Source: Candidatus Woesebacteria bacterium RIFCSPLOWO2_01_FULL_44_24b (GTDB lineage: Bacteria; Patescibacteriota; Microgenomatia; UBA8517). Taken from it: DNA of 64,000 nucleotides. The notes under the pieces were generated by a model. It ran no database searches. It saw only the letters and a program-made list of their open reading frames with translations, and was not told the origin of the DNA. Of the stretch, positions 23,601 through 59,811 are shown in pieces. Both the position numbers and the translations under genes were made by a program. Location: contig MGHM01000017.1 of NCBI GenBank assembly GCA_001793235.1, forward strand, positions 2,971 to 66,970, written 5' to 3'. Each line of letters opens with the position of its first letter. Position 1 is the stretch's first letter.

Positions 23601-24859
23601 CAAGAGTAGGTAATAGGCTGACTTTCAGGATCAGTCGCGCTGGCTGTAAAGTTGACCGTAAGCGGTGCATTCGGCCCGCTGGTTGGATTCGCGCTGGCTG
23701 TAGCAATCACCGGTGGCTGATTTGCCGCGGTGTACTTTATTCTTCTCACAGTCCCCGGGTTACTCTGCCCTTCCCAAGAAATACCAATGTCTACATAATA
23801 AAGAGCCCCATCCGGCCCCTGTTCAAAATCAACTATTTCACCATACGGCCCATTTACAGTCCCATTGGCAGGTTCAAAATTAAAGGTGCCGTTTAGAACT
23901 CCAGTTGTGGGATCAAGATCAAGCCCGCGCACGAAGTTTCGCACATAATCTCCATAAAAATAGTCTCCTTGGTAACTCGCGGGGAAGTTGCCTCCGCGAT
24001 ACACAAAACCTCCAGTTACTGACGCGTCGCTGCCACCGTGGGGATAAGAAAAAAGCGGATTAGTCATGCCTGCCGTCCCGCAGCTTCCCTCACAAACTGG
24101 CCAGCCATAATTAGCCCCCGCTACTGCCACATTTATTTCTTCTATCGAATTTGCTGCGTCATTACCGCCAACATCTCCGATATAAATCTTTCCCGTCGGA
24201 GCATCCAACGAAATCCTGAATGGATTCCTAAGTCCCCTCGCCCAAATATAATCATAATTGGGTCCTGCATCGTCCCAAAAAGGATTATCCTGAGGAGTTG
24301 TGCCGTCTGTGTTTACTCTTAAAATTTTTCCTTGGTAACTGGTCAAGCTTTGTGAATTATTTGCAGCATCAAAGCCGTCCCCGGTTGAAATATAAAGTTT
24401 GCCGTCAGGGCCAACTATAACCGAGCCCCCATGATGCCAAAGATCGGCATCCTGAGGTGCCTCCCAAACTAGAAACTCACTACCTACACTTGCCGTGTTG
24501 CCGGTTGCCGTAAAGCGCGCTACTCTATCACGAAGAGGCGAGCCATGGGTGTAAAAAAGATAAAAAAAGCCGTTTGTTGTAAAATTTGAGTCAAGATCAA
24601 TCCCGGTTAATCCCCGCTCACCTTGATCAATATTAATATTAGTTATTTGCATAAATGGCGTGGGGTCAACTACTGAAGCTCCTGCTTGCACAATATGAAC
24701 TGTTCCATCACGCTCTAAAACTAACATCCTGCCATCCGGCAAAAATTCAATTGTAGTAGGCTGGTCAAGGCCGGTAATTAGGGTTTCACTGACAAAGTCT
24801 GGTGGAGGAGCGGCTTGCGCAATTTTGGGGGTTAAAAGAAATACTCCCTGCTGGAGCAA
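20630..24859 (-). CDS. Giant (1409 aa) secreted surface protein: N-terminal glucose/sorbosone-dehydrogenase-like beta-propeller, PKD/Ig-like domains, three LamG/ConA-like domains joined by Pro-Thr linkers
   Basis: Signal peptide; GLDQPTTIEFLPDGRMLVLERDGTVHIV (soluble quinoprotein dehydrogenase-type propeller); PKD-like PITYSWEFGDGTP...YTARLTVSD; LamG-like ...DEVRVYDRALNQSEI / DEVRVSNIVRY / DEVRISNNVRY; (PT)n linkers. Confidence 0.8.
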   Translation of the reverse strand: MLQQGVFLLTPKIAQAAPPPDFVSETLITGLDQPTTIEFLPDGRMLVLERDGTVHIVQAGASVVDPTPFMQITNINIDQGERGLTGIDLDSNFTTNGFFYLFYTHGSPLRDRVARFTATGNTASVGSEFLVWEAPQDADLWHHGGSVIVGPDGKLYISTGDGFDAANNSQSLTSYQGKILRVNTDGTTPQDNPFWDDAGPNYDYIWARGLRNPFRISLDAPTGKIYIGDVGGNDAANSIEEINVAVAGANYGWPVCEGSCGTAGMTNPLFSYPHGGSDASVTGGFVYRGGNFPASYQGDYFYGDYVRNFVRGLDLDPTTGVLNGTFNFEPANGTVNGPYGEIVDFEQGPDGALYYVDIGISWEGQSNPGTVRRIKYTAANQPPVIATASANPTSGPNAPLTVNFTASATDPESQPITYSWEFGDGTPPSTQQNPSHEYQQKGQYTARLTVSDGVNQTLSDPITIIVGTPPVIDLISVTTPSDQPGGQITFRAGENANFSSSASDADGTLAEANYSWDVFLIHLSHTHPEAGPVSGSSGVFGVPTSGHEINNEMQFQFVLTVTDSDGLKATNAVNIIPETVDLSFDTSPTGLTVNIDGFVKVTPTVLNTVVNFQHNIEAPLSQGGFDFVSWSDGGAATHTITAPDTPQSYVATYQPGATPTPTPTPPPATGLLAGYAFEDGSGTTANDSSGNNRNLALAGSPIWNTTGKYGGGLNLDGSDDRGSVASFPLPAQFTYMAWVNNPTNQSYETIATVGSPRDFYLGTGVPTFYNGSADIVLGSTVPTGTWQHVAITYNGSQMQAYLNGTPVGTPQNMSLASLTNTLQVGAWISGSSNFDFFSGVMDEVRVYDRALNQSEIALAMNTPLTGVLPTPTPTPTATPSPTPTPTPTPGTGGHALQFFGNGTGDIDRVKIPIDPQTPVDVGGDFTLEWWMKAPLTGNSGVASCGVEAGWITGNIIFDRDVFGSGDYGDYGVSLTNGQVAFGVSQGSSGNTVCGATLVADNTWHHVAAIRNGLTGQLSVYVDGNLDATASGLMGDVSYRDARVTSYPGSDPYLVIGAEKHDAGSAYPSYTGIVDEVRVSNIVRYDQNFGLPTGAWAPDTNTVGLYHFNEGSGTVASDSATVTGSPTNGTINVGGNPVGPVYVTSDITFGAPTPTPTPTPTPTPTPTPSPTPTPSPTPTPTPPSSGTSLQFDGTNDLARFTDLPLSTVYTYEAWVKRTTDTGRYETFMSDANSSYNQAMFTLYVDGGGFDCGAGDQFAYYQAAGNSVQCSGVTVQLNQWYHIAITRDSSGTRRFFVNGQLVDTDTGTIAPANSSGRLNIGRAGDNNGEYFPGLVDEVRISNNVRYTANFIPQTSIFGTDANTVVLYHLNEGAGQTLADSSGNNRNGTRGSSTNIQTTDPAWSTDTPITSN
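21313..21414 (-). repeat. In-frame (Pro-Thr)n coding microsatellite-like linker repeat inside the giant surface protein gene (second copy at 22185-22262, third near 22862-22895)
   Basis: ggngtnggngtnggn periodicity visible on the + strand (GVGVGV in the antisense frame); corresponds to the PTPTPTPT linkers. Confidence 0.7.
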
Positions 24860-26697: not shown

Positions 26698-28194
26698 TTA
26701 GTGGGTATTTCGCTGAAAATTTCCCTCATTGGTTAAGCGCCTGAGAGGAGATGGATCAAGCTTATGAAGCTCCTCGACACTCCCGACATTGCGAAATACA
26801 AGCGCCAAAATTGCATCTTCATTAAGTAAATGCAGATTGTAAGTCAAAGTCGGCTGAGTAAACTTGACATAGTTCATTTGTGCTTTAGTTGTTTCACCTT
26901 CAACAAAAGCAGGGATATTGAAAGGCATAAGCTTTCCATCTAAGTACTTAGTCCTTGCAGAGGCCTCTCCGCCGTAAGGCTTAAATAACTTTCCCGATTT
27001 ATCAGAACAATAAAGAGCGCCACCAGGAGACTCAATTGTTCCTCCTGAAACCGCTCGCGAAACGCCAATGCCTGAAGCCCCGAGAAGCAAGGTAGTTGCA
27101 ATGTGATCTGAGGCCCCGCCTTCAACTATAACCGGAATGTTCACTTCCCCGCGAAGCTGCCAAACCAGCTCCGGCCAGTCGACCACTGACCCGCTTCTGA
27201 CCCCGGTGATGCACCTCCCGCCGCCGCCAATACCTACAAACAAGCCATCAGCACCCGCCGCCTGAACTGCCTTTGCCTGAACCACACTTACAATCTGACC
27301 GGCAAATATTTCAACTTTTTGACCAAATTCTTTTCTCAAGGACTTAACTGTCGTGACCACACCCGACCCGGGCTCTGGGGAATAAACTCTAAAGCTTCTA
27401 ACTCCGGCTTTGTAGAGCGCGATTGCCCGCTCAAGAGCTTTCGCAGGGTCGGCCGACAAAGTACCACACACGTTTTTTTGCCAATAAGCTGCAATTTTGC
27501 GCCTGTCTTTTCTGCCCTTCAAAACAGCTTTTTCGATTCGCTCTAACCAATCAAAGACCTCGCCTGCCAAGTCCACCTGCCGCTTTATTTCCGAAGTTAG
27601 GCCATTCCTGGGAATTGCGGATAAGCAATGACTGGCAGCCATAGTGGCAATGGCAGCGGCACTATTCCAAACATCTGGGGACGCCGAGCCCACAAAAATA
27701 CTTCTGGCCTGCCTGCCCAATTTCACAAATGGCCCTTGGGCATAGCGCTCTGTGCGGCTCGTTCGCGCCTTTTCGCCACCAACAACGGTTGCACCAAGGT
27801 CACCAATCGAGAACGCAAGTCCGTCGGCAAGCGAGCGCTCCACCACATCGGATTGCACCTTTGGAGGAAGAGAAAAGTCACTTTTATCGACGTTATATAG
27901 GAATTTCATCCGGTAAGGATGATTGAACATGGTCAGAAAAAACATGCGCATGCGTAGAGTCTGAACAATACGCTCCTGTGGCAGCATTTGAAGAGATTCA
28001 TAGGAAATATAATCATGCGGGGTAATAAGGAGACCCTGACTTGGGTAAACATGCTCGGCGTCTTTACTGAAGTGAATCCATGGAGCCAGATATCTTTCGA
28101 TATTTTCCTCGTCTTTTTTAAGGAGATTTTTTATTCTGTCTTTGCCCTCTTTACTGTCTCGGAGCTTAACAAAATCTTCCTGCAATCTATTCAC
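26698..28194 (-). CDS. IMPDH/GMP-reductase-family TIM-barrel protein with divergent N-terminal ~200 aa
   Basis: GADGLFVGIGGGGRCITGVRSG parallels the IMPDH catalytic loop GIGPGSICTTR, with an upstream phosphate-binding Gly-rich segment; 498 aa; no CBS pair recognised. Confidence 0.5.
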   Translation of the reverse strand: MNRLQEDFVKLRDSKEGKDRIKNLLKKDEENIERYLAPWIHFSKDAEHVYPSQGLLITPHDYISYESLQMLPQERIVQTLRMRMFFLTMFNHPYRMKFLYNVDKSDFSLPPKVQSDVVERSLADGLAFSIGDLGATVVGGEKARTSRTERYAQGPFVKLGRQARSIFVGSASPDVWNSAAAIATMAASHCLSAIPRNGLTSEIKRQVDLAGEVFDWLERIEKAVLKGRKDRRKIAAYWQKNVCGTLSADPAKALERAIALYKAGVRSFRVYSPEPGSGVVTTVKSLRKEFGQKVEIFAGQIVSVVQAKAVQAAGADGLFVGIGGGGRCITGVRSGSVVDWPELVWQLRGEVNIPVIVEGGASDHIATTLLLGASGIGVSRAVSGGTIESPGGALYCSDKSGKLFKPYGGEASARTKYLDGKLMPFNIPAFVEGETTKAQMNYVKFTQPTLTYNLHLLNEDAILALVFRNVGSVEELHKLDPSPLRRLTNEGNFQRNTH

Positions 28195-28218: not shown

Positions 28219-28773
28219 GTGAAAAAAATAATCTTTGGTACCACAAATGCGGGCAAACTTGCCGAGGCTCAAAGTGTACTTGGCATGAAAGTGGAAGGTG
28301 TGAGCCTCGACATTGACGAAGTGCAGTCTCCGGATACGGCTTACGTGGCTACAAAAAAAGCCCAAGATTATTGGAAAAAAATAAAAAAACCGCTTTTTGT
28401 CGAGGATTTGGGCTTAACTTTCAAGGCATTTAAAAATCTTCCCGGGGTTTATATTAGAGACTTCCTGGAAAACTTGGGCAATGAGGGCTTAATAAAAATA
28501 ATTCCAAAAGGCAAGTCCAGAGAAGCTACGGCCGTAACGGTACTTGCCTATTATGCTGGCCGCGGCGAGCCCAAGCTTTTTAAAGGTGAAGTAAAAGGCA
28601 CAATTGCCCAAAAGACCAAAGGCGACAAAGGCTTTGGCTGGGACCCGATTTTTATCCCGAAGGGAAGTAAAAAAACATTCGGCCAGATGGAAATGGAAGA
28701 AAAAAACAAGTATTCAATGAGAAGAAAAGCCCTGGAAAAACTTCACAAGTGGCTCAAAGAAAAGAAGATGTGA
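28219..28773 (+). CDS. rdgB: Non-canonical purine NTP pyrophosphatase (RdgB/HAM1/ITPase family)
   Basis: KIIFGTTNAGKLAEAQSVLG...FVEDLGL...GFGWDPIFIP...SMRRKALEKL; GTG start at 28219 (the ORF-track extension overlaps the convergent upstream gene); the TGA stop overlaps the tRNA 3' end. Confidence 0.8.
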   Translation: MKKIIFGTTNAGKLAEAQSVLGMKVEGVSLDIDEVQSPDTAYVATKKAQDYWKKIKKPLFVEDLGLTFKAFKNLPGVYIRDFLENLGNEGLIKIIPKGKSREATAVTVLAYYAGRGEPKLFKGEVKGTIAQKTKGDKGFGWDPIFIPKGSKKTFGQMEMEEKNKYSMRRKALEKLHKWLKEKKM

Positions 28774-28843
28774 CGCTATCGGGAGTCGAACCCGAGTTTG
28801 TGGGATGAGAACCCACTGTCCTGGACCACTAGACGATAGCGCC
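28771..28843 (-). tRNA. tRNA-Glu (anticodon CUC)
   Basis: Minus strand GGCGCTATCGTCTAGTGGTCCAGGACAGTGGGTTCTCATCCCACAAACTCGGGTTCGACTCCCGATAGCGTCA: 7-bp acceptor stem, D-arm GTCT/GGAC with the TCTAGTGGTCCAGGA loop typical of tRNA-Glu, anticodon loop TTCTCAT, T-arm TCGGG-TTCGACT-CCCGA, discriminator A; CCA not encoded. Confidence 0.85.
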
Positions 28844-28870: not shown

Positions 28871-28900
28871 TTGACAGCACTTTTTATAAGTTGCTATAGT
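28871..28900 (+). promoter_or_regulatory. Near-consensus sigma70-type promoter (TTGACA-18-TATAGT)
   Basis: ttgaca at 28871-28876 and tatagt at 28895-28900 with an 18-nt AT-rich spacer, upstream of the leader ORF and operon. Confidence 0.5.
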
Positions 28901-28938
28901 TATTTTTTAGGAGCCGAAAGTTTTAAAAGCTTCTAAAA

Positions 28939-29001
28939 ATGAACAACAACTCACCAAATATTGGCAAACGGCGTCAAGATAGATACCGTTTTAATTTTTA
29001 A
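28939..29001 (+). CDS. Putative leader peptide ORF (20 codons: MNNNSPNIGKRRQDRYRFNF) whose stop abuts an intrinsic terminator
   Basis: The ATG at 28939 is preceded by AGGAG (28911-28915, distant). The TAA stop at 28999-29001 overlaps the first stem nucleotides of the terminator. Rich in Asn (3) and Arg (4 of 8 residues). Confidence 0.3.
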   Translation: MNNNSPNIGKRRQDRYRFNF

Positions 29002-29025
29002 AAGAGCCTTGGGGCTCTTTTTTTT
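29001..29025 (+). terminator. Rho-independent terminator/attenuator hairpin immediately upstream of the operon start codon
   Basis: AAAGAGCC-ttgg-GGCTCTTT followed by a T-tract, about 10 nt before the ATG at 29036. Confidence 0.6.
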
Positions 29026-29035
29026 GCGCCTAAAA

Positions 29036-29851
29036 ATGAAAACGAAGCATATTAGAAAAGTACTCCTCTGCGAGCCTTCGCATTTTTCCGTAGATTATGT
29101 AATTAATCCCTGGATGAAGATTGGAAGTATCAACAAAACTAAGGCAACTTCCCAGTGGAAGAATCTTGCAAACACTTTAACAAAACTTGCTATAAAGATC
29201 GAAATTATAAAACCCGCCAAAGGGTTGCCCGACATGGTCTTTGCTGCTGACCAGGCATTGATTAAATATAAAAACTTGGTTTTAAGTAATTTTCACTATC
29301 CCCAAAGGCGAAGGGAAATTAAAAAATATCTACCTTGGTTTAAGAAACAAAATTTCAAAATCTACAAACTTCCCAAAAAATGTTTTTTTGAAGGAAGCGG
29401 AGAATGTGTGTGGTATGGGGACCTATTGTTTGTAGGAACCGGATTTAGAAATTCCACCGGTGTTTGCAAATTTTTATCGGTATACCTAAATGTAGAGACA
29501 AAATGCCTCGAACTTATTAATCCTAAGTTTTATCACCTTGACACCTGCCTATTTCCACTTAATGACACGACTGCATTTTATTATCCTCTAGCATTCTCGC
29601 AAAAAAGCCAAAGAGTTTTGAAAAAGTTAGTTAAAAATTTAATCCCTCTAGCAGATGACGAAGCAAATAATTTTGCAGCCAATAGTTTGGTAACCGATCA
29701 TCGTGTAATTATGCAAAAGGGAAACAAAAATTTCGCCGTCAAGCTGAAAGATTTGGGCTACAAAACAGTGGAGGTAGATGTCTCAGAATTTATGAAATCT
29801 GGTGGTGGGATTCATTGCTTAGTGCAAACTTTAGAGGAGGAATATGCCTGA
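29036..29851 (+). CDS. Amidinotransferase-superfamily enzyme (DDAH / arginine- or agmatine-deiminase-like fold) with C-terminal catalytic Cys
   Basis: C-terminal KSGGGIHCLVQTL is the GGG(I/V)(H/R)C catalytic-Cys motif of the amidinotransferase/ADI/DDAH superfamily; 271 aa is DDAH-sized. Start at the ATG at 29036 (the ORF-track TTG at 28961 runs through the terminator). Confidence 0.55.
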   Translation: MKTKHIRKVLLCEPSHFSVDYVINPWMKIGSINKTKATSQWKNLANTLTKLAIKIEIIKPAKGLPDMVFAADQALIKYKNLVLSNFHYPQRRREIKKYLPWFKKQNFKIYKLPKKCFFEGSGECVWYGDLLFVGTGFRNSTGVCKFLSVYLNVETKCLELINPKFYHLDTCLFPLNDTTAFYYPLAFSQKSQRVLKKLVKNLIPLADDEANNFAANSLVTDHRVIMQKGNKNFAVKLKDLGYKTVEVDVSEFMKSGGGIHCLVQTLEEEYA

Positions 29852-31217
29852 AAGAATTCTTATTCATAATGCCGATTATATTTATAACCTTGCGGGAGTT
29901 TCACCAAATTCGCCGCCGCAAGATATCCTAATTGAGGGAAATATTATTGCTGCAATTGGCCCAAAATTAGATGAAAAATTTGGGGATGTTAAAACCCACA
30001 TAGACGCAACTAATAAACTTGTCTTTCCGGGGTTTATCAACACCCATCACCATCTATTTCAAGCATTCATGAGGCATGTACCTCAAATGCAAAATCAAAG
30101 AATAGATCAATGGATTGCAGAAGCTACTTCCCGAGCTAAAAAGATGGACCCCGAAGCACACTACTGGGCTGCCCTTTCTAATATGGCAGAACTAGTACTC
30201 TCTGGTGCAACAACTACGACCGATATGCTTTATCTATATCCTAATCAATACGATCATCAAGAACTTTTTGAAGCAACTATTGAGGCTGCAAAAACCATTG
30301 GAGTCCGATTTCATCCCTACCGTGGATCAATGAGCAGAAGAGATGGGTTATTTGAAAAAGATGTGTTAGAAGAATCTGAAAAAATTATTGAACATACCAG
30401 AGACATTGTAGATAAATTCCACCAGAAAGCTGGAGATGCAATGGTTAAAGTTGGGATAGCACCATGCACTATCTTTACAAACTGTGCTTATGATTACGAA
30501 CAAGCTGCGGCACTTGCAATAAGATACGACATTAATCTGCAAACTCATTTGGGTGAATCAAAATTTGAAACCCGATATGTTCTTGAAAAATACGGCATGA
30601 CACCTTACCAGTTGATGGAATCACTGGGGTGGAAAGATAGTAGAGTTAGCCTTGCCCATTGTATTGAGATAAACGATGAAGATATTGACCGTTTAGCGCA
30701 AAACCACAATTCTGTTAGCCATTGCCCTACTTCAAATGCACGCTCGCCCATAGGGCAAACAGGAGTTGCTCCAATAGCCAAAATGCTTCAAAAAGGAGTG
30801 AATGTGTCAATTGGCGTTGACGGCAGTGCAGGAAACGATTCATCTGACATGCTTTTTGAAATGAGAGCTGCCAGAACTAACCAAGGAATTCCAGAAGAAT
30901 CAACATATCTTGATCCAGAGCAGATTTTTTATATGGCAACTGAAGGTGGCGCCAAAGCTCTTAGATGGGAAAGCAACATAGGACGTGTTGAGCAAGGATA
31001 CTGCGCTGATATAACTATTTTTGATATTCATGATTCCATTGGTCATATAGGTGCATGGGACAAAGCCGGGTCACTAATAAGCTGCAGCTCTAAACGGGCT
31101 GAAACAGTTATTATAAACGGAGAAATAATTGTTTCAGAAGGAAGACTTACGAAAATAGAAGAACGGCAACTGATAAAAAAAGCAACGACTAAATGGAAGG
31201 AGGCTTTTGGCAAATGA
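29844..31217 (+). CDS. Amidohydrolase, TRZ/ATZ (chlorohydrolase / nucleobase- or nucleoside-deaminase) family
   Basis: PGFINTHHHLFQAFMR (HxH metal site), later HLGES and D-rich C-terminal motifs typical of guanine/cytosine/MTA deaminase-type amidohydrolases; overlaps the previous gene by 8 nt. Confidence 0.75.
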   Translation: MPERILIHNADYIYNLAGVSPNSPPQDILIEGNIIAAIGPKLDEKFGDVKTHIDATNKLVFPGFINTHHHLFQAFMRHVPQMQNQRIDQWIAEATSRAKKMDPEAHYWAALSNMAELVLSGATTTTDMLYLYPNQYDHQELFEATIEAAKTIGVRFHPYRGSMSRRDGLFEKDVLEESEKIIEHTRDIVDKFHQKAGDAMVKVGIAPCTIFTNCAYDYEQAAALAIRYDINLQTHLGESKFETRYVLEKYGMTPYQLMESLGWKDSRVSLAHCIEINDEDIDRLAQNHNSVSHCPTSNARSPIGQTGVAPIAKMLQKGVNVSIGVDGSAGNDSSDMLFEMRAARTNQGIPEESTYLDPEQIFYMATEGGAKALRWESNIGRVEQGYCADITIFDIHDSIGHIGAWDKAGSLISCSSKRAETVIINGEIIVSEGRLTKIEERQLIKKATTKWKEAFGK

Positions 31218-32488
31218 TAAATGTAGACTTAGAAAAAACAATTCCAGAACCTTTGCGCTTTCCCGATGAAAGAGTAAAAGTAGCTGAGATAAGACAAGAT
31301 TACGGAACTTTTTTAAGTGTAGATGCATTAAAATGGGCACTTAACAAAGATTACTTAAGTAAAGATTCCCAAAAAATAACCGCTTCAGAGATTGCCCCAT
31401 CGCTAAGATGTCCTGAAGGGTGCAATAATTGTCCCGATTCTATCCTCGAAATTAAAAGGCGTATAGCTGTAGGTTTGATTCCAAAGGTGGAAGCCAGGGC
31501 TCGAACTGAGACTTTTAAATATATGATGGACGATTTCTATAATTTGGGTATTCGCCATTGGATGTTTGTAGGAGGAACTCTTGATCACTTACCAGAAATT
31601 GGTGAACTAATTAATCATGGATTGAGCCAAGAAGAAACAAAAGTTAGTTGGTTTAGCGATGGCATCCCTCAAACTAATCCCGATGGCAGTCCTTCAAATT
31701 TAATGCAAACTGCACTAGAGGATGGATGGATGAAAAAAGTTGCAAATCATGTTTCTTGGGATTATCCCTACGGGTATGCCAATATAATCCCTCATGGAAA
31801 TATTTTACCTCTCAAGCAAGGGAGAGGGCTCAAATTTGAAGACGATCCAGAGTACTCAAGAGTTTTCAAAACTCACTATGGTACCATCTTTGCTCTTAAT
31901 TTGATTAATGCTGATGCAAGAAGGGTTGTGCTTAATATCACGGTCTCTCCAGGAAATTTAAGGCTAATTCCCCAATTATATGCTCAAGCCGATCTTTTGC
32001 AGCAACATGCTATCGAAAATGGAAAGAAAACTGAGGTAGGTTTAACGTTCAGCCCGTCCATTTGGAGACCTCACCAAGCCAGAGGGGACGGAACCTTACA
32101 AAGCCCTGCTTCGGCAGGGCTTGAAATGAGAGATATGTCAGAAACGAACGAAATATTTTCAATGATATTACAAAATGAATACCAGCGAATAAGAAATGGT
32201 CATCCTCGTTTACTTTATAACTCTTCAGGATATACAAATTTAATGGCTGACCCGCAATACAGACAAATTACAGTTGACCAGGGAGTACCCTATCCTAATG
32301 GTCCAGAAATACTAAATATAACCCCTACAGCTGACGCTTGGCTTGATCCGATGTTTGCAGGTCCGGAATTGGAAGCGATAAATAGTACGTTTGGATACAG
32401 AGACCGGGTCTTCAAACCTGAAAATAATATATTTACACAATTCCAAGACCCTAACCTGCCTTGGTTTCCAAATATGGTAACAACATGA
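31214..32488 (+). CDS. Hypothetical protein with CxxxCxxC motif (possible non-canonical radical SAM or Fe-S enzyme)
   Basis: SLRCPEGCNNCPDS (C-x3-C-x2-C) at residues ~65-75, followed by MFVGGTLDHLPE (possible GGE-like SAM-binding motif); ATGA-coupled to the amidohydrolase. Confidence 0.35.
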   Translation: MINVDLEKTIPEPLRFPDERVKVAEIRQDYGTFLSVDALKWALNKDYLSKDSQKITASEIAPSLRCPEGCNNCPDSILEIKRRIAVGLIPKVEARARTETFKYMMDDFYNLGIRHWMFVGGTLDHLPEIGELINHGLSQEETKVSWFSDGIPQTNPDGSPSNLMQTALEDGWMKKVANHVSWDYPYGYANIIPHGNILPLKQGRGLKFEDDPEYSRVFKTHYGTIFALNLINADARRVVLNITVSPGNLRLIPQLYAQADLLQQHAIENGKKTEVGLTFSPSIWRPHQARGDGTLQSPASAGLEMRDMSETNEIFSMILQNEYQRIRNGHPRLLYNSSGYTNLMADPQYRQITVDQGVPYPNGPEILNITPTADAWLDPMFAGPELEAINSTFGYRDRVFKPENNIFTQFQDPNLPWFPNMVTT

Positions 32489-33159
32489 GAGAAACTGACA
32501 AATATCTAGCTCAGTCAATTATTGATTTTAAAGTGCCAAGGTTTGGTGAGAATATAAAGAATAAAAGCGACTCTCCTTCCTGTATGTTTGACGTAAGAAA
32601 ATTATTATCCGAACCAGAGCCTTATAAGTATATTTGCAATAAAATGGCTGAGGTTGTCAAAAATGACTGTTCTGGAAGTGCTGTGGTTGGATTGGCCACT
32701 TCAGGCATAGCTTGGGCTGCAGTTGCTGGATACTTAACAGATATGCCAGTTTTATATGTTCGTAAGAAAAAAGAACCAAATGTTAGTGACTTATATTTGG
32801 AGGGTACTTTGCCAAGCGACAGAAGAGTGATACTTATCGATGACTTGCTCTTCGCTGGAGAAAGCAAAAATGAGGCTTTAGAGATACTTCAAAAGGAGGG
32901 TTGTATCGTTACGGATGTTGTTGTTGTCGTTGATAGACAGATACAAAGAAAAAAAGATGGACCCCCGATAGATCAAAGATGGGGATTACAATTTCATAAC
33001 CTTATAAATATGTCAGAAGTTGTCGAATATATGGTACAAACAAATTCTATCACTGAATCGCAACTTCAACATTTAATCCTAGACTATCAGCATTTTGAAC
33101 GCTGGGATATGCCAGATTTTGCTAAGGTGGGTGATTTTGATGAAAGACAAAACATTTGA
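32485..33159 (+). CDS. Type I phosphoribosyltransferase-domain protein (OPRT-like)
   Basis: AVVGLATSGIAWAAVAGYLTDMPVLYVRKKKE...RVILIDDLLFAGES gives the PRPP-binding loop (acidic-acidic followed by small residues); ATGA-coupled to the previous gene. Confidence 0.6.
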   Translation: MRETDKYLAQSIIDFKVPRFGENIKNKSDSPSCMFDVRKLLSEPEPYKYICNKMAEVVKNDCSGSAVVGLATSGIAWAAVAGYLTDMPVLYVRKKKEPNVSDLYLEGTLPSDRRVILIDDLLFAGESKNEALEILQKEGCIVTDVVVVVDRQIQRKKDGPPIDQRWGLQFHNLINMSEVVEYMVQTNSITESQLQHLILDYQHFERWDMPDFAKVGDFDERQNI

Positions 33160-33403
33160 AATAATTGGTTACACAACATTTGGAGATATAAGCAATGGTG
33201 AGTCTTATGTGGTGAAAATTAGCCACGATTGCCCCAAAAACGGTATTTTAGAACTATCAACCGGACTGGGTAAATACCATACTGATGAAAGAACGGTGTC
33301 TTGTAATAAATGTGAGGGGTCGGTATTAGTAAAAAAAGATATCGCAGGCCCTCAAATTATTTATCTTGCCTCTACTTCTTTTGAACCACAGGCTAAGGTA
33401 TAA
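33140..33403 (+). CDS. Small Cys/His-rich protein (87 aa), possible zinc ribbon
   Basis: MKDKTFEIIGYTTFG...SHDCPKNG...YHTDERTVSCNKCEGS; the start overlaps the upstream PRTase by 20 nt. Confidence 0.35.
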   Translation: MKDKTFEIIGYTTFGDISNGESYVVKISHDCPKNGILELSTGLGKYHTDERTVSCNKCEGSVLVKKDIAGPQIIYLASTSFEPQAKV

Positions 33404-33965
33404 TTTTGGGGTGGAGTACCATAATCTCCAAATCTGTGGGCTGACCCGGAAACTTCCCTTAATTCAAGTTGGCAGGCACACCAAAATCGCCGCGTTTTCA
33501 ATTTTGGGAGATGTTGAATTGACTGATGCTTTGGCTGATGCCATGACATTGAAAATTGAAAATTTAAAATTAAAAATTGATTACATCGTTGGTCCTGAAG
33601 TTAAAGCGGTACCCTTAGTTCATGGAGTCGCCAAGCGACTTGGTCACAAACGCTTTGTAATATGCCGCAAAAGCATCAAGCCCTATATGACTTCGCCAAT
33701 TGTGGTCAAGCCCTTGAGCCATTTTCCCAAGCACGTTAAGCCATTGGTATTGAACGGCCCCGACGCTCAAATGCTAAAAAATAAAAAAGTATTTGTTGTA
33801 GATGATGTAATTTCAACTGGAGTAACTTTTCGCCAAATTACCCATTTAATGAATAAAGTTGAAGCACAAGTGGAGGGATACATTGCTGCTATAAAACAAG
33901 GTGAGCAATTTGATAATTTAGAAAATTTATTATATTTAGCAGAACTTCCTGTATTTAAAAAGTAA
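33366..33965 (+). CDS. Type I phosphoribosyltransferase, adenine-PRTase-like
   Basis: IDYIVGPEVKAVPLVHGVAKRLGHKRFVICRK...KKVFVVDDVISTGVT is APRT-like; the TTG/GTG start region (33366-33411) is uncertain. Confidence 0.55.
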   Translation: MPLLLLNHRLRYNFGVEYHNLQICGLTRKLPLIQVGRHTKIAAFSILGDVELTDALADAMTLKIENLKLKIDYIVGPEVKAVPLVHGVAKRLGHKRFVICRKSIKPYMTSPIVVKPLSHFPKHVKPLVLNGPDAQMLKNKKVFVVDDVISTGVTFRQITHLMNKVEAQVEGYIAAIKQGEQFDNLENLLYLAELPVFKK

Positions 33966-34613
33966 TCAAAATCTCGGAGGGCTTAACAAAACACTTTTAT
34001 CCGACTGCATTTCACTGACTCCGATTACATAAAAAGGGTCAATATTTTGATTGCTCCTAAGTTTATCAACACCATGTTGGAATAATTTTGTAAAATATAC
34101 AGCCATCTCTATTTCTATATCTTCTTGCCTTAAAACGTCAATAATTAATGAGGCGGTGGTTGAATGGGCAATTACATCATCGACCAATAGTACTCTATCT
34201 CCCTTTTCAAGGCCGTTGAAAACAAACTCAGATATGTCGTCTGTTGTAAATGACTTAACTTTTTCTTTAACAATAACCGGCGTTTCCCAAGCTCCCGGAA
34301 TATCTTTACCCTTTCTTCCGGGAGCTAACGGAAGCCCTAACCGTTCTGCCACAGATGTGGCCAATGGTATGCCGGAATTGGGAATTCCTACAACTTTATC
34401 AAATTCGTATCCTCTAAAACGATAAGCTATTAAATCAGCAGCAAATCCCTGATACCCCAAATCAACAAGCTGATTTACCCATTTCACCGAAACATAGCCT
34501 TTTTCAAAATTGGTCACTTTCGCTTCCTTAATAAATCTGTCCCGTAAGGCCGATTCTCGCGCGCGAATACCTTCTAATTGTTCACTGTGTTCAATATCTC
34601 TTAAAATAGCCAT
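33966..34613 (-). CDS. Type I phosphoribosyltransferase-domain protein (third paralog, convergent)
   Basis: KVVGIPNSGIPLATSVAERLGLPL...DRVLLVDDVIAHSTTA; start at MAILRD (34613); its stop is directly adjacent to the stop of the 33366-33965 gene. Confidence 0.55.
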   Translation of the reverse strand: MAILRDIEHSEQLEGIRARESALRDRFIKEAKVTNFEKGYVSVKWVNQLVDLGYQGFAADLIAYRFRGYEFDKVVGIPNSGIPLATSVAERLGLPLAPGRKGKDIPGAWETPVIVKEKVKSFTTDDISEFVFNGLEKGDRVLLVDDVIAHSTTASLIIDVLRQEDIEIEMAVYFTKLFQHGVDKLRSNQNIDPFYVIGVSEMQSDKSVLLSPPRF

Positions 34614-34750
34614 ATGTTTTATAGTATTTGAAGAACAACAAATTAGCAATTGACACGCTTCTCTTATAGGGTTAATTTAAAAGTAACAGTGTAATACCTC
34701 TTTGATCTTGGGAGGAAATATAAGAATAACAAGATTGATAATTAAAAGGT

Positions 34751-34989: not shown

Positions 34990-35604
34990 ATGGCAATACC
35001 AGACAGGCTTCAGACAAGTGAAATAAGGCAAATCTCACTGGAGCTGACTGACCCACAACTTGTTATTGATCTGAGCTCACTCGGTTACGAAGTACATATC
35101 GACACAGTGCTAAACAAACCTTTCTTTAAAGGAATATCCCAGCAAAGAGAGGTCCCCCTCCCTGCCTTTCATACGGATTCCTACATCTTAAATTCACTTG
35201 TCAATATGGGGTATAAATTCAGCGATCAGCATATTTATCCTGCGAACGCTGTCAAATACGCTCGTGGAGGCCAATGGGGTGCTATTAATGGAGTAATAAA
35301 CTTCTACCCTGATCTTGGCAAGCTTTTGACAACCAATTTAAACCCGGATTGTTTAGAGATAATTAAAACGGGAGTCAATAACGGCAATAGCCTTGAAGAA
35401 GAAGTTGAAAAAGTCCTGGGTAAAGCTCCGCAAAAGAAACTGCTCAAAATCCCGGTTGCAGTTCTCCCCACTACTTCCATTGACATAGAAGCCTGGGCCA
35501 TTTATGTCCCTGACTCAAACGTAGCAATAGCTCAGAACCTAAAGCAAATAGTTTGTGACCGAACAGAGAGAGCTTCCCACTCTGCAATCTCACTGCAAGA
35601 TTAA
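34990..35604 (+). CDS. Hypothetical protein (204 aa)
   Basis: ORF with coding-like composition; no motif recognised. Confidence 0.4.
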   Translation: MAIPDRLQTSEIRQISLELTDPQLVIDLSSLGYEVHIDTVLNKPFFKGISQQREVPLPAFHTDSYILNSLVNMGYKFSDQHIYPANAVKYARGGQWGAINGVINFYPDLGKLLTTNLNPDCLEIIKTGVNNGNSLEEEVEKVLGKAPQKKLLKIPVAVLPTTSIDIEAWAIYVPDSNVAIAQNLKQIVCDRTERASHSAISLQD

Positions 35605-35611
35605 CTAAACC

Positions 35612-36463
35612 ATGATCTTTCGTGAAAGAGAAAGAGCCAACAACCAAGAATGGTACACGCTAGACGGCTGGCATCTTAGCTTCTCCGGTGGTAGCACTAA
35701 GAATTCAATAGTAGTCAAAACAAGAACGGGCAACATTTACCAAGAGCCTGAGTCTACTATACATTTATCGGCCGCCCTAGGGGAACGCTTGGAAGTCTTT
35801 ATTAAAAGCGGGGGTTATATCGACAGAGTCATGGCAAACACTGATCCAGCAAGCTTAAACTACACAATTACTCAACTAAATCGCGCAATCTCAAGCACAG
35901 GCATTGATCATGCAACAATATGGTCAATTGGTGCAATGGGCTATTGCGGTTATTGTGCAAACGGCGAGATCTACCGAAGAAGTAGATACTTAAAGTCATT
36001 AATAGATGGAAATAACGATTTGGGTAAGATCATGAGACAGTCTCAAACCTTAAAAAATAAACAGTTCTACGACCGGGATGGCAGGATTGTAAGCTCGGCT
36101 GTGTGTAGCCTGACAGAGGCTTTTGAAATTTTAGACTACCCTACACCACCCATGCAAGTAAGCCCAAATTCCTCCTATTTGCTAATTATTCGAAGGGCGG
36201 ACTTAATTGAAGGTTATGAGTACACCAATACCATAGTTTCTGAAACAAACCAGTTTTGTTATGACTATTTTGATTTTACTTCAAGTTCTATAAACACTCC
36301 TACCAAAAATATGCCACAATTCCGCAAATATAAACCTTCCAAAGGCGATCAATTCCTTAGGGCTGTACAAATTCTAAAAGATGCAGGGTATCAAATAGAA
36401 GATGGAACGGGGTGCATTAGGGACAACAATACTCTGGTTTTTCCAGTCCCCAAACTACGCTGA
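35612..36463 (+). CDS. Hypothetical protein (283 aa)
   Basis: ORF 8 nt after the previous gene; no motif recognised. Confidence 0.4.
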   Translation: MIFRERERANNQEWYTLDGWHLSFSGGSTKNSIVVKTRTGNIYQEPESTIHLSAALGERLEVFIKSGGYIDRVMANTDPASLNYTITQLNRAISSTGIDHATIWSIGAMGYCGYCANGEIYRRSRYLKSLIDGNNDLGKIMRQSQTLKNKQFYDRDGRIVSSAVCSLTEAFEILDYPTPPMQVSPNSSYLLIIRRADLIEGYEYTNTIVSETNQFCYDYFDFTSSSINTPTKNMPQFRKYKPSKGDQFLRAVQILKDAGYQIEDGTGCIRDNNTLVFPVPKLR

Positions 36464-58156: not shown

Positions 58157-59285
58157 TAGCCTTCGCAACCACAGAGGCAACATTTCGGTCCAGCACATCA
58201 GGAATTATGTTTTCTGAACTTAAATTCTTGACGTAGTTAGCGAGAGCGTGTGCAGCCGCCAGTTTCATTTTTTCAGTGATAGCCCGTGCATGGCTATCAA
58301 GCGCTCCGCGAAACACCCCCGGGAAAGCAAGTACATTATTCACCTGATTTGGGTAATCACTTCGGCCGCTGGCCACTACTTTTGCTCCGCCTTTTACAGC
58401 CTCTTCGGGCATAATCTCGGGAACAGGATTTGCAAGCGCAAAAACAATAGGATCTTTATTCATTGAAGAAACATCATGAGAAGTCACAATATTCGGCGCG
58501 CTGACACCAATGAAAACATCGGCGTTTTTAAGAGCTTGGGAAAGCGTCCCGGTTTCATGATTAGGATTAGTTAGTTTTGCCATCTTACTTTGTGCCCAAT
58601 TCAAGCCCTTTGTACTTTTATCAATAATGCCGCGGCTATTGACCATAATTATATTTGTGGCTCCCTCCGCCAATAAAATTTTTGCTACCGCAATACCTGC
58701 AGCACCAGCACCTGCAATTACAATCTTGCTTGTTTCAATTTTGCGTTTTGTAACCTTCAGAGCATTAATAAGTGCCGCCAAGACAACAATTGCCGTGCCA
58801 TGCTGATCGTCATGAAAAACGGGAATGTCGAGCACTTTTTTAAGTTTCTCCTCTATCTCAAAACATCGGGGCGCGGAAATATCCTCCAAATTAATAGCTC
58901 CAAAACCTGGAGAGATTGCTTTGACAATGGCAACAATCTCGTTAACTTCTTTTGTATCTAGACAAATTGGATAAGCATCAACTCCGGCAAATTCTTTCAT
59001 AAGGACGGCTTTGCCCTCCATGACAGGAAGGGCGGCTTCGGGACCGATGTCCCCAAGGCCTAAAACTGCCGTGCCGTCGGTCACAATTGCCACTGTATTT
59101 CCTTTACTGGTGTAGTCATAAACTTTACTTTTGTTTTTTGCTATCGCCCGGCTCACGGCGGCAACCCCGGGAGTGTAAGCTAGAGACAAACTGGCTCGGT
59201 TTTTAATAGGAGTTTTGACCAAAAGCCCAATCTTGCCATGATTTTTTTTATGAAGCGCCAGAGCAGCTTTATCAATGTCAATCAT
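58125..59285 (-). CDS. NAD(P)-dependent malic enzyme (short form)
   Basis: [14 protein letters not shown]...[40 protein letters not shown]...[16 protein letters not shown] (NAD-binding). Confidence 0.85.
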
Positions 59286-59811
59286 ATAACCTCGGATTTT
59301 TGAACGGTATCAAAGCCAAAATTACTGCTGGTTCATAAAAAGTTGTACGGGTTAAAACATCGCCAGTGAGTATCCCAACTGCGCCATTTGCCTGCTTTGA
59401 ATTTTTCAGTCCAAAGACAATATCGTCTGCTTCCCCCAACTCTTTTCCTTGTTTAATCAGTTGAACAACCTTTTTGGGCAAGAAAAATGCCCCAGTTCTG
59501 CCCTTGCCAAATTTTCCGTTTTTGGACTTAACTACAATCCAGGCAAAGCCTTCCATCCCGCCGTTTCGCTCCTCCAGTCCTCCTTCAATTCCCACCCAAT
59601 AGTCTGCATTGGGCACAAGCTTGGCAACGTTATTGGCTCGATTTGTAGCGCCTATCATGGTTTCTTCCTCACTCATTGGCTGGTCAGAGACTCCGGACGG
59701 GGCAGAAATTCCTTCAACTTTGAAAAGTACTTCAGGAAACATTTTTGCAAACCCAATTTCCGTTGTGTTGATTTTAACAGGATTTGCCGATGCAACTACT
59801 ACTCTTTTCAT
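59278..59811 (-). CDS. Inosine/xanthosine triphosphatase (YjjX/Maf-Ham1-like, DUF84)
   Basis: MKRVVVASANPVKINTTEIGF...SGVSDQPMSEEETMIGATNRA...WVGIEGG... aligns with E. coli YjjX along its length; start at the ATG at 59811. Confidence 0.6.
   Translation of the reverse strand: MKRVVVASANPVKINTTEIGFAKMFPEVLFKVEGISAPSGVSDQPMSEEETMIGATNRANNVAKLVPNADYWVGIEGGLEERNGGMEGFAWIVVKSKNGKFGKGRTGAFFLPKKVVQLIKQGKELGEADDIVFGLKNSKQANGAVGILTGDVLTRTTFYEPAVILALIPFKNPRLYD

Follow-up and report, generated by a model that had tools for sequence, protein, structure and literature searches.

What does the gene cluster at positions 29036–34649 of this window (the whole stretch of DNA analyzed, 64,000 nucleotides) do for its host, a tiny groundwater bacterium of the CPR, Candidatus Woesebacteria? 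A sequence-only reading had proposed an undescribed nucleobase/nucleotide pathway. Our analysis suggests that this remains the best description, that the genes do not reduce to conventional salvage, and that their conserved core may be a new route to a pyrimidine-like nucleotide.

Gene layout and upstream signals

All seven open reading frames of that reading were recovered at its coordinates, and each of its family calls was verified: six coupled plus-strand genes (G1–G6) and one convergent phosphoribosyltransferase (PRTase) gene, G7. The ATGA-type coupling it claimed for every junction holds for G2/G3 and G3/G4; elsewhere neighboring genes overlap slightly or lie a few nucleotides apart. Read from the sequence, G1 and G2 overlap by 8 nt (ATGCCTGA), with a GAGGAGG Shine-Dalgarno sequence; G2 and G3 form an ATGA overlap if the ATG at 31214, after GGAAGGAGG, is the start of G3 (424 aa; its longest open reading frame begins at 31193); and G3 and G4 form another at 32485. 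G4 and G5 overlap by 20 nt, a 7-nt gap separates G5 from the GTG start of G6 at 33411, and the stop codons of G6 and G7 abut at 33965/33966. Despite the non-ATGA junctions, G1–G6 amount to one tightly coupled predicted operon, and the arrangement indicates that it is a real, co-transcribed metabolic one. The cluster is surrounded by housekeeping genes, in very small CPR genomes, and a HAM1 ITPase and an IMPDH-family protein nearby mark its neighborhood as one of nucleotide hygiene; the adjacency of tRNA-Glu, which had been pointed out earlier, carries no information.

A dedicated promoter and attenuator had also been claimed, and candidates for both lie upstream on the plus strand. The promoter-like site (TTGACA-18 nt-TATAGT, 28871–28900; 11/12 matches, with a TG extension) is a consensus match only, the regional number of such sites not exceeding shuffled expectation. 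The leader hairpin (GAGCC-TTGG-GGCTC, extended by flanking A/T pairs; about 29000–29030) is followed by T8, ending about 6–9 nt ahead of the G1 start codon, and the fold of 28905–29040 reaches −32.4 kcal/mol (z = −2.5). Hairpin and T8 form a candidate attenuator; searched against Rfam, the leader came near the gathering score of no family and matched no known riboswitch.

A conserved three-enzyme core

Comparison across loci shows the predicted functional heart of the operon to be a three-enzyme module, G2-G3-G4. A G2-type amidohydrolase adjoins the radical SAM gene in 19 of 20 assessable loci, an OPRT-like PRTase adjoins it or is fused to it in 19 of 21, and the association persists though radical SAM identity drops to 25–50% and gene order varies. 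The unit envisaged earlier, with three PRTases, an amidino enzyme and a small Cys protein, does not hold together, since only G2-G3-G4 recurs elsewhere; that these three co-occur in other loci nevertheless upholds a pathway interpretation.

G2 (29844–31217, plus strand; 457 aa) is a mononuclear-metal amidohydrolase of the isocytosine/8-oxoguanine deaminase clade (Pfam Amidohydro_1, E 9e-56), with PDB matches to 3hpa (3e-79), the isocytosine deaminase VCZ (7ww2, 2e-72) and TrzN (1e-58). It scores 396 bits against the 8-oxoguanine deaminase equivalog NF006055, under the cut-off of 532, and also matches a 5'-deoxyadenosine deaminase model (228 bits) and MTA/SAH deaminase models. The VCZ substrate and catalytic residues Q73, W90, Y130, H234, E237, H271, D322 and HxH are kept, with departures at S326 (G) and F88 (D). 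Among 16 cluster amidohydrolases the catalytic set is invariant, as are Q73, W90, Y130 and E237, which in VCZ hold the 4-oxo-pyrimidine ring; S326G is a family-specific change (15/16), and D or E replaces F88 in 11/16. G2 is a zinc amidohydrolase with a predicted active site like that of isocytosine/8-oxoguanine deaminases, and the acidic residue at position 88 makes a carboxylated (orotate-like) substrate a poor fit. Characterized relatives deaminate isocytosine, guanine, 8-oxoguanine and ammeline at a common 2-amino-4-oxo motif (PMC10481359). Names of the AtzB/AtzC type appear among the search matches.

G3 (31214–32488, plus strand) belongs to a very rare, unnamed radical SAM family of patchy distribution and, like G5, had no match in Pfam. 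The earlier guess of an atypical radical SAM enzyme is borne out: G3 carries the RCPEGCNNCPDS motif and, downstream of it, a GG(T) motif, both of which its family conserves, with one CxxxCxxC cluster site and no auxiliary-cluster cysteines, and the best structural match is BlsE, an enzyme of a cytosine-nucleoside antibiotic pathway (PMC3715490). Between close relatives, the gene has been swapped for a 30%-identical homologue.

G4 (32485–33159, plus strand; 224 aa; PF00156) is an orotate-PRTase-like enzyme whose best PDB matches are all OPRTs (2wns, 1e-15). In alignment with OPRTs it retains the acidic PRPP loop and the VDR(Q) motif and lacks the Phe-Phe loop; given this loss and a sub-cut-off score against TIGR00336 pyrE (75.9 bits, under 106.8), its base need not be orotate. 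Its dN/dS against the relative L029 is 0.04, and in some genomes it is fused to the G3 C-terminus (P0012, P0017, P0018, P0019, P0021).

The remaining genes, G1, G5, G6 and G7, are by all indications from these comparisons lineage-specific additions, and outside the window G5 and G6 were found in the nearest relative only. G5 (33140–33403, plus strand; 87 aa) is a Cys/His protein with one non-identical homologue among 5.8e9 proteins searched; 77% identity and a dN/dS of 0.12 against that homologue indicate a real gene. Residues H29, C31, H47, C55 and C58 are kept in the homologue, and the gene lies between G4 and G6 in L029 and L030 too; its AF2 model (pLDDT 38) is unusable. G6 (33411–33965, plus strand; 184 aa), an APRT-like PRTase of the Thermus type (PRK07322 subfamily), passes the cut-off of the APRT subfamily model NF005592 (175 against 143 bits), matches 5zgo (1e-31), 6fsp (9e-31) and 7f06 (6e-23) in the PDB, and is 82% identical in L029 (dN/dS 0.04); it may be an ordinary purine PRTase. 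Convergent with it, G7 (33966–34613, minus strand; 215 aa from the ATG at 34613, the longest open reading frame extending to 34649) encodes a divergent purine-type PRTase-fold protein (PF00156, E 7.5e-11) whose best curated models, Xpt (54 bits) and Apt (51 bits), fall far under their cut-offs. It is absent from L029 and L030 and probably lies outside the conserved system.

G4, G6 and G7 had been called paralogs; all three are PF00156 Pribosyltran proteins, but identities of 29% over 105 aa (G6/G7) and 23% over 92 aa (G4/G7) argue against close paralogy. That G4 and G7 are not ordinary Apt/Xpt/Hpt/PyrE orthologs agrees with our searches, in which neither reached a curated equivalog cut-off. 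At other loci, MTAP (L008), a PNP-family phosphorylase (L022), a class II aldolase and MetK adjoin the radical SAM gene and may handle by-products. A true UPRTase occurs in L008 and L014, with a short partial tblastn match in L032, and a 318-aa UPRTase-like protein in eight loci, giving these surroundings a pyrimidine character; OMP decarboxylase was seen in none of the loci.

The arginine link and a proposed route

Gene neighborhoods also show a predicted link between the module and arginine/citrulline enzymes. The most informative partner, argininosuccinate synthase (ArgG), is absent from the 64-kb window and so was out of sight of the sequence-only reading. At no fewer than 11 other loci it stands ahead of the module, and the protein is often a fusion with a CPSase-type allosteric domain. 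Of 23 distinct loci, 11 include a bona fide ArgG (NF001770, 468 bits; cut-off 334) in the cluster, in three arrangements, and we infer it in three further loci. The ArgG-carrying loci include the most remote radical SAM relatives, which have no PRTase. For the extra C-terminal domain of ArgG, the best match is the allosteric, nucleotide/ornithine-binding domain of carbamoyl-phosphate synthetase, and in L032 CarB lies directly upstream.

In the window, the place that ArgG has elsewhere is occupied by G1 (29036–29851, plus strand; 271 aa), a guanidino-group-modifying enzyme of the DDAH/ADI fold that resembles arginine dihydrolase, arginine deiminase and DDAH. It has the catalytic Cys (GGGIHC) and His (FYHLDTC), its PDB matches include ArgZ/Sll1336 (E 2e-57) and AgrE/Alr4995 (4e-53), and the start at 29036 agrees with the N-terminus of ArgZ homologues; NCBIfam scores fall under the cut-offs for Mtb-type DDAH (242 bits; 300) and arginine dihydrolase (232 bits; 450). 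G1-like genes occur at one other locus only, and the ArgG-less loci with a guanidino-modifying enzyme are the window and L009. None of the loci contains an ArgH/PurB-type lyase; the aspartate skeleton is therefore likely to be kept. Since the ArgG-MGS fusion occurs in more than 120 clusters in Microgenomates and is far commoner than the radical SAM family, its adjacency could owe something to lineage history or to arginine and pyrimidine genes being co-regulated in general. Furthermore, one genome without the radical SAM gene couples ArgG-MGS to another amidohydrolase, a CodA-like one, so the ArgG-amidohydrolase pair may serve a role that needs no radical SAM enzyme.

We tentatively propose, at somewhat less than even probability, that the module turns a 2-amino-4-oxo-pyrimidine precursor derived from arginine/citrulline and aspartate into a uracil- or orotate-like base, which is then phosphoribosylated. 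On chemical grounds, a guanidino/ureido donor (arginine, then citrulline) would be joined to aspartate, by ArgG making argininosuccinate or, in the window lineage, by G1 supplying citrulline or transferring an amidino group to aspartate. The guanidino-succinate part would cyclize to a 2-(substituted)amino-4-oxo-5,6-dihydropyrimidine-6-carboxylate; spontaneous formation of the six-membered 'anhydride' of argininosuccinate is known. G3 could then take a ring hydrogen, with dehydrogenation or oxidative decarboxylation yielding an isocytosine-type ring. G2 would hydrolyze the C2–N bond, releasing an orotate-/uracil-like base and ornithine or ammonia; displacement of N-alkylamines from carbons of this kind is known among related TRZ/ATZ enzymes. 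G4 would join the base to PRPP, and G6 might recover the adenine that the by-product 5'-deoxyadenosine releases, or do no more than purine salvage. The scheme assigns no step to G5 or G7, and it does not account for the presence of two or three PRTases beside the module.

Alternative readings and known chemistry

Alternatively, though we consider it rather unlikely, the operon may serve salvage or detoxification, with G2 deaminating a pre-formed 2-amino-4-oxo heterocycle that comes from the environment or arises through damage (guanine, 8-oxoguanine, isocytosine, or a pterin or deazapurine fragment), G3 remodeling the product or precursor, the PRTases refilling the nucleotide pool, and ArgG adjacency reflecting co-regulation only. 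The closest characterized relatives of G2, the nearby HAM1 ITPase and IMPDH-family protein, the APRT subfamily score of G6, the MTAP/PNP and UPRTase genes of other loci and the general dependence of CPR bacteria on salvage are all consistent with this. However, G2 stays under the 8-oxoguanine deaminase cut-off and has family-specific pocket changes, we know of no base-salvage route that depends on a fusion of a radical SAM enzyme with an OPRT-like domain, and pure base salvage does not predict an ArgG link in remote, PRTase-free clusters.

Synthesis of a non-canonical nucleotide or nucleoside (a signal, toxin or antimetabolite) from an arginine-derived base, loosely like blasticidin-type or cylindrospermopsin-type chemistry, seems distinctly improbable. 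The BlsE match of G3, the rarity and patchiness of its family and the swap between close relatives would suit such a role, as would the natural-product-like context of L007, where an MFS transporter, an ABC exporter and an NRPS-like PP-binding reductase flank the radical SAM-PRTase pair, and the RND/ABC efflux set downstream of the cluster in L035. Against it are the housekeeping surroundings in very small genomes and neighbors from primary metabolism (UPRTase, MTAP, CarB, ArgG); no glycosyltransferase, aminotransferase, ligase or resistance gene is found in the CPR loci and no exporter in the window operon, and a PADLOC search gave no defense-system match. Nothing supports the host-interaction role suggested earlier.

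There is only a slight chance that G2 is a 5'-deoxyadenosine/MTA-type deaminase servicing the radical SAM enzyme, with G6 or G7 recycling adenine and G3 acting in something unrelated, for example modifying a target encoded elsewhere. The deoxyadenosine and MTA/SAH deaminase matches of G2 point this way, as do MTAP, MetK and the class II aldolase (a type found in 5-deoxyribose disposal) beside the radical SAM gene in other loci. Yet G2 matches 8-oxoguanine/isocytosine deaminase far better (396 versus 228 bits) and keeps the pyrimidinone-binding residues of VCZ, the conserved, fused PRTase is OPRT-like rather than APRT-like, and the ArgG linkage is left unexplained. Ordinary salvage by a guanine deaminase and Apt, Xpt and PyrE orthologues beside a chance Fe-S protein is disfavored as very improbable: the PRTase-fold and deaminase-fold proteins all come from salvage-type superfamilies, but G4 and G7 fail every curated equivalog cut-off, and G2-G3-G4 adjacency recurs across deep divergence, with G3-G4 fusions in some genomes.

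No described pathway in the searched literature matches the module. Two reactions of the proposed arginine/aspartate route have parallels: oxidative decarboxylation, as suggested for G3, is carried out by HemN and BlsE, and the C2–N hydrolysis suggested for G2 is the reaction of all its nearest characterized relatives.

Operon layout and the recurring gene unit

The operon at 29036-34649 consists of six same-strand genes and one convergent gene, and the ORF listing and the junctions read in the sequence bear out the sequence-only reading of it, with small corrections. These genes encode an arginine deiminase/dihydrolase-like protein (G1), an amidohydrolase (G2), a radical SAM enzyme (G3), an OPRT-like phosphoribosyltransferase (PRTase; G4), an 87-aa Cys/His protein (G5), an APRT-like PRTase (G6) and, on the minus strand, a PRTase-fold protein (G7). 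ATGA-type coupling, earlier claimed for every junction, holds for G2/G3 and G3/G4 and not for the others: G1 and G2 overlap by 8 nt, G4 and G5 by 20 nt, G5 and G6 are separated by a 7-nt gap, and the stop codons of G6 and G7 abut. The G2/G3 overlap presupposes that G3 starts at ATG 31214, which has a strong GGAAGGAGG ahead of it. A near-consensus promoter-like site (28871-28900) lies 5' of the operon, as does a plus-strand leader of ~130 nt (28905-29035) with a strong hairpin and T8 ending just 5' of the G1 start codon. Shine-Dalgarno sequences are strong at G2 to G5, with none at G1. Scanned against Rfam, the leader matches no riboswitch or leader model, the best non-tRNA matches falling far under gathering scores; it is a possible candidate for a ligand- or translation-coupled attenuator.

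Several features flank this layout. A gene for a HAM1/RdgB non-canonical NTP pyrophosphatase (28219-28773, plus strand) ends in a stop that overlaps the 3' end of tRNA-Glu(CTC) (28770-28843, minus strand) by 4 nt, and a second house-cleaning NTPase, of the NTPase_I-T family, is encoded at ~59278-59811 (minus strand). Transcribed divergently from both the HAM1 gene and the operon is the gene for a 498-aa IMPDH/GMP-reductase-family TIM-barrel protein (26698-28194, minus strand). Its sequence is extremely divergent, scoring 52 bits on the IMPDH model (cut-off 481), and it has an unmatched N-terminal region of ~250 aa; judged by these matches, it is neither a canonical GuaB nor a canonical GuaC. 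A 1409-aa ORF without a Pfam domain (20630-24859, minus strand) resembles the giant orphan proteins typical of CPR genomes. Beyond G7, two adjacent plus-strand genes (34990-35604 and 35612-36463; 204 and 283 aa) have no Pfam, NCBIfam or PADLOC match, and an ORF resembling one of them (D1-like, 30% identity) occurs in the relative L030.

Comparison with 23 distinct non-window loci carrying G3 homologues, annotated by BLAST and Pfam and drawn mostly from metagenome contigs (a scan of GTDB genomes found only three loci), separates a conserved core from its surroundings. A G2-type amidohydrolase gene sits beside the radical SAM gene in 19 of the 20 loci with upstream sequence present, and 19 of 21 have a G4-type PRTase immediately downstream of it, in four cases fused to the radical SAM C-terminus; the fusion proteins are P0012, P0017, P0018, P0019 and P0021. 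The two most remote clades have, in place of the PRTase, DUF6282, which is phosphotriesterase-like and belongs to the amidohydrolase superfamily; a literature search for DUF6282 by name returned no paper. On this gene-order evidence, G2-G3-G4 is the unit kept together by selection. The operon genes had been read as one candidate pathway; recurrence bears this out for G2-G3-G4 and not for G1, G5, G6 and G7, none of which recurs likewise. Three PRTase paralogues had also been taken as the defining feature, a view we abandon: G4, G6 and G7 are no more than distant relatives of each other, G6 and G7 lie outside the conserved core, and the set is not recurrent with the module.

The nearest relative (L029/L030) has G4, G5 and G6 at 77-83% identity and is missing G7. 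Its radical SAM protein (L029, 282-1532) is only 30% identical to that of the window (31193-32488) and 58% identical to another family member, P0035, and the 93 C-terminal residues of its G2 (the contig contains no more of it) are ~60% identical to the window G2. Since the radical SAM protein and the G2 end are so much more divergent than G4 to G6, this pattern indicates that the amidohydrolase-radical SAM segment has been exchanged between lineages by xenologous replacement. On a 262-kb contig of 52% GC (L007, 1-12131), a radical SAM-PRTase pair occurs without an amidohydrolase and is flanked by a 1543-aa orphan, a PP-binding/thioester-reductase protein, an MFS transporter and an ABC exporter; this context is natural-product-like, unlike that of the CPR loci.

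Predicted activities of the operon enzymes

Motifs, the PF04055 matches of homologues and fold together show that G3, earlier suspected of being an atypical radical SAM protein, is a radical SAM enzyme, and SAM cleavage activity is predicted for it. Every family member covering the region has the cluster-ligand cysteines C73, C77 and C80 (RCPEGCNNCPDS), the CxxxCxxC and GG(T) motifs are kept across the family, and many members contain exactly three cysteines; G3 also has a GGE-type SAM-binding motif and a partial (beta/alpha)6 TIM-barrel. The window G3 has no Pfam match of its own, to PF04055 or otherwise, and 17 of 23 homologues match PF04055 at E <= 1 (best 2e-8), with the remote member P0049 scoring 47.1 bits against a cut-off of 29.5. 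A profile search of G3 against PDB sequences found nothing significant, so a fold search was needed. Likeness to BlsE, the cytosylglucuronate decarboxylase of blasticidin S (PDB 7VOB; PMC3715490), is at fold level only: identity to BlsE, to SPASM/twitch-type enzymes (MoaA, anSME, SuiB, SkfB, PqqE) and to viperin is only 11-15%, the C-terminal region of G3 is ~100 aa longer than theirs and carries invariant RPHQARGD, NSSG and FGYRDR, and the BlsE gene context is unlike that of G3. The basic residues R223, K226, R244, R292, R297, R339 and R405 of G3 are likewise invariant. On the BlsE model TIGR04466 the window G3 has no match and P0049 reaches 24 bits (cut-off 400). A role for G3 as an OMP-decarboxylase substitute was considered and rejected, since nothing pointed to it and an sp2 carbon is a chemically unattractive site for radical decarboxylation. 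The family is extremely rare, with no curated model and no characterized member: 23 matches in an index of 5.8 billion proteins, 35 representatives at E < 1e-3 among 1.84 billion cluster representatives, three loci among GTDB species genomes and 14 among JGI metagenomes.

G2 is a TRZ/ATZ-type amidohydrolase whose top matches, both full-length, are 3HPA, an 8-oxoguanine deaminase structure (E 3e-79), and the isocytosine deaminase VCZ (PDB 7WW2/8IS4; E 2e-72); on the 8-oxoguanine deaminase model NF006055 it scores 396.3 bits, under the equivalog cut-off of 532. In VCZ bound to its product 5-fluorouracil, the substrate pocket is formed by Q73, F88, W90, L91, Y130 and S326: Q73 and Y130 contact O4, W90, L91 and H234 stack on the ring, E237 contacts N1 and the exocyclic group, and S326 reaches N3 through water (PMC10481359). 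The 8-oxoguanine deaminase Pa0142 (given as PDB 3HPA) takes 8-oxoguanine, guanine, isocytosine and ammeline (PMC10481359). The metal-ligand and catalytic set of these deaminases (HxH, H234, E237, H271 and D322 in VCZ numbering) and the ring-binding Q73, W90 and Y130 are invariant in G2 and the 15 other cluster amidohydrolases. Position 326 is Gly in 15 of the 16 proteins, position 88 is acidic (Asp or Glu) in 11 of 16 (Asp in G2), and position 91 is Ile in G2. To judge from these residues, recognition of a 4-oxo-pyrimidine is probably kept in G2 and the remaining pocket is altered. Since the ring-binding and catalytic residues are invariant, G2 very probably hydrolyzes the C2-N bond of a 2-amino-4-oxo-pyrimidine-type ring; since S326 and F88 are changed, its substrates are very probably not exactly the known ones. 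Related TRZ/ATZ enzymes, whose names appear among the search matches, displace N-alkylamines from such ring carbons. In contrast to the characterized deaminases, for which such a neighbor is unreported, the G2 type is encoded beside a radical SAM gene (19 of 20 assessable loci).

G1 can be aligned, from one end to the other, with the arginine dihydrolase domain of ArgZ/AgrE (PDB 6JUY, 6LRF; E 2e-57), and it matches PF19420 (E 7e-16). The catalytic Cys and His of this pentein-fold, guanidino-group-modifying superfamily are kept in the alignment (GGGIHC and FYHLDTC in G1; GGAAKC and FYHLDTC in ArgZ). However, G1 lacks the ornithine cyclodeaminase domain of ArgZ/AgrE, carries Asp at the ArgZ position whose Asn is changed to Ser in PDB 6JUZ, and falls under curated cut-offs for both arginine dihydrolase (NF052232; 232.3 bits, cut-off 450) and Mtb-type DDAH (NF045659; 241.8 bits, cut-off 300). 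Because of these differences it is uncertain whether G1 would yield citrulline, yield ornithine or transfer an amidino group.

G4 has the type I PRTase fold, and all of its top PDB matches are OPRTs; its acidic PRPP loop VILIDDLLFAGES and its VVVDRQ align with those of OPRT structures (including the OPRT domain of human UMPS, PDB 2WNS), the latter with the VDR motif, whose Arg has a role in base binding. It scores 75.9 bits on the pyrE model TIGR00336, under the cut-off of 106.8, and differs from OPRT in a 40-aa C-terminal extension, in its fusion to the radical SAM protein in some genomes and in an N-terminal base/carboxylate loop signature, [IL][RK]NKxDS, that replaces the OPRT Phe-Phe loop, with E. 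coli PyrE as the comparison. By score (175.3 bits against a cut-off of 143) and by end-to-end alignment with PDB 5ZGO (E 1.4e-31), G6 belongs to the Thermus-type adenine PRTase subfamily (PRK07322, NF005592; PDB 5ZGO, 6FSP), though its sugar donor and base are not certain because an adenine phosphopsicosyltransferase (7F06) also falls in this subfamily. G7, a divergent purine-type PRTase-fold protein, reaches none of the curated Xpt, Apt or Hpt equivalog cut-offs; at best it scores 54.4 bits for Xpt (cut-off 177) and 51 for Apt (cut-off 243). G5 is a real gene and an orphan, with one homologue (77% identity, dN/dS 0.12), no family match and an AF2 model too poor for use (pLDDT 38). A defense role for the operon was rejected on the PADLOC results, in which it matched no known anti-phage system; there were only weak, partial matches of the G6 PRPP loop to ShosT and PsyrT (E ~1e-4).

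Argininosuccinate synthase and other partners

A bona fide argininosuccinate synthase (ArgG) is encoded in the cluster at 11 of the 23 loci, and its presence is implied at three more by contigs of matching length. The L014 copy scores 467.7 bits on NF001770 (cut-off 334) and 416.9 on TIGR00032 (cut-off 268). The gene is mostly the first of the cluster, elsewhere downstream or on the opposite strand, and it is retained in the remote DUF6282 clades. A tblastn search found no ArgG in the window. Among the loci without ArgG, two encode a guanidino-modifying enzyme: G1 in the window and an ADI-like gene in L009. An ArgH/PurB-type lyase was found in none of the loci. An MGS-like domain forms the C-terminus of ArgG in most CPR loci, and its top matches are CPSase allosteric domains (2YVQ, E 1.5e-7; E. 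coli CarB residues 937-1038); in L035 this domain is on a separate GNAT-MGS protein, and in L032 CarB lies directly upstream.

The ArgG-MGS fusion was discarded as a marker for the pathway, being common in Microgenomates without the radical SAM gene (>120 clusters, far more than the radical SAM family). In one genome without that gene (L037, 9001-11600; GCA_040960765.1), ArgG-MGS overlaps by 4 nt with the gene for a 324-aa CodA-like amidohydrolase of the uncharacterized PRK06886 family, so the coupling of ArgG to an amidohydrolase is broader than the radical SAM module. This pairing of ArgG with a deaminase-type amidohydrolase is widespread in Microgenomates.

Other neighbors include true UPRTases (L008 and L014, with a low-confidence partial match in L032), which give the neighborhood a pyrimidine flavor. 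A protein of ~318 aa, found in eight distinct loci (including L009, 7015-7968, and L016, 9009-9971) and not in the window, has a 100-aa N-terminal extension and no Pfam or NCBIfam match; its PRPP-loop-like NPASGAS and C-terminal VGDAGHVLRHF make it putatively UPRTase-like. Further partners are MTAP (L008), a PNP-family phosphorylase (L022), MetK, and a class II aldolase translationally coupled to a radical SAM-PRTase fusion. From what is established on the salvage of 5'-deoxyadenosine and 5-deoxyribose, these four would be in line with clearing 5'-deoxyadenosine and replenishing SAM for an active radical SAM enzyme.

A proposed route to a base-nucleotide, its rivals and known pathways

We tentatively propose that the module builds a ring from arginine or citrulline and aspartate, converts it to a uracil- or orotate-like base and then to a nucleotide, a reading that is quite possible though short of probable. 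ArgG would couple citrulline and aspartate to argininosuccinate; in the window lineage, G1 would supply citrulline from arginine or move the amidino group to aspartate. The guanidino-succinate part would then close to a six-membered ring, perhaps by the action of DUF6282 in the remote clades; a six-membered cyclic anhydride of argininosuccinate forms spontaneously. The radical SAM enzyme might aromatize this ring by dehydrogenation or by oxidative decarboxylation, a reaction that HemN and BlsE carry out on their substrates. G2 would cleave the C2-N bond to release an orotate- or uracil-like base and ornithine or ammonia, and the OPRT-like G4 would add ribose 5-phosphate. The ArgG-amidohydrolase-radical SAM-PRTase gene order matches the order of these steps, except that the amidohydrolase is encoded before the radical SAM enzyme and would act after it. 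The chain also fits the G3-G4 fusion, the absence of a lyase, the isocytosine-type pocket of G2 and the CPSase-type domain on ArgG. Against it count the lack of ArgG in the window, the acidic pocket position 88, which disfavors a carboxylated base, the absence of a recognizable OMP decarboxylase from every locus, and the multiple PRTases, which it leaves unexplained.

A further-reaching form of this proposal, which we consider unlikely, is that the module and ArgG (or G1) constitute a hitherto undescribed radical SAM-dependent de novo route to pyrimidine nucleotides, with the ring derived from the guanidino or ureido carbon and nitrogens of arginine or citrulline plus aspartate, via cyclized argininosuccinate or guanidinosuccinate. 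The radical SAM enzyme would aromatize this ring, G2 would turn it from an isocytosine-type into a uracil- or orotate-type one, and phosphoribosylation would follow. If true, carbamoyl phosphate, ATCase, dihydroorotase and dihydroorotate dehydrogenase would be bypassed in organisms thought to be without nucleotide synthesis.

Alternatively, the module may salvage or detoxify a pre-formed 2-amino-4-oxo base; we regard this as somewhat unlikely, and as base salvage it would be the first such route to need radical chemistry. Synthesis of a nucleoside analogue would be in keeping with the BlsE-like fold of G3, the rarity of its family, the natural-product-like context of L007 and the exchange of the radical SAM gene between relatives, and even so seems distinctly improbable. 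It is very unlikely that the amidohydrolase and PRTases service by-products of the radical SAM enzyme. That this is an ordinary salvage operon with one gene inserted by chance is extremely improbable, given the recurrence of the module elsewhere and the fusions.

We rate the operon, in which every enzyme comes from a known superfamily, as a nucleotide-forming one built around a new radical SAM enzyme; targeted full-text literature searches found no paper on this gene combination. It is assumed that CPR/Patescibacteria obtain their nucleotides from partners. If a compact operon turned amino-acid-derived precursors into a base-nucleotide, whether by making or by remaking it, CPR metabolic reconstructions would change and the source of CPR pyrimidines would become experimentally testable. 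Furthermore, its well-delimited partners and natural OPRT-like fusion make the G3 family unusually tractable for the discovery of a new reaction.

Two known pathways resemble the proposed chain from amino acids to a base-nucleotide. In cylindrospermopsin biosynthesis, a uracil ring is made from a guanidino group by the amidinotransferase CyrA and the amidohydrolase-family enzymes CyrG and CyrH, but that pathway belongs to polyketide-linked secondary metabolism and, unlike the module, is not known to involve a radical SAM enzyme, a PRTase or ArgG. The canonical de novo pathway (CarAB, PyrB-PyrF) differs in that PyrB, PyrC, PyrD and PyrF are all missing from the module, whose donor would be citrulline or arginine instead of carbamoyl phosphate, whose oxidation would depend on radical SAM chemistry and which would need an additional C2-N hydrolysis. 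The two nevertheless appear to follow a parallel logic, in which an aspartate-containing ureido or guanidino compound would undergo ring closure, oxidation and phosphoribosylation. Both encode amidohydrolase-superfamily, oxidizing and OPRT-like enzymes in that order, and the likeness extends to the CPSase-type allosteric domain on ArgG and to the CarB gene adjacent to the module in L032.
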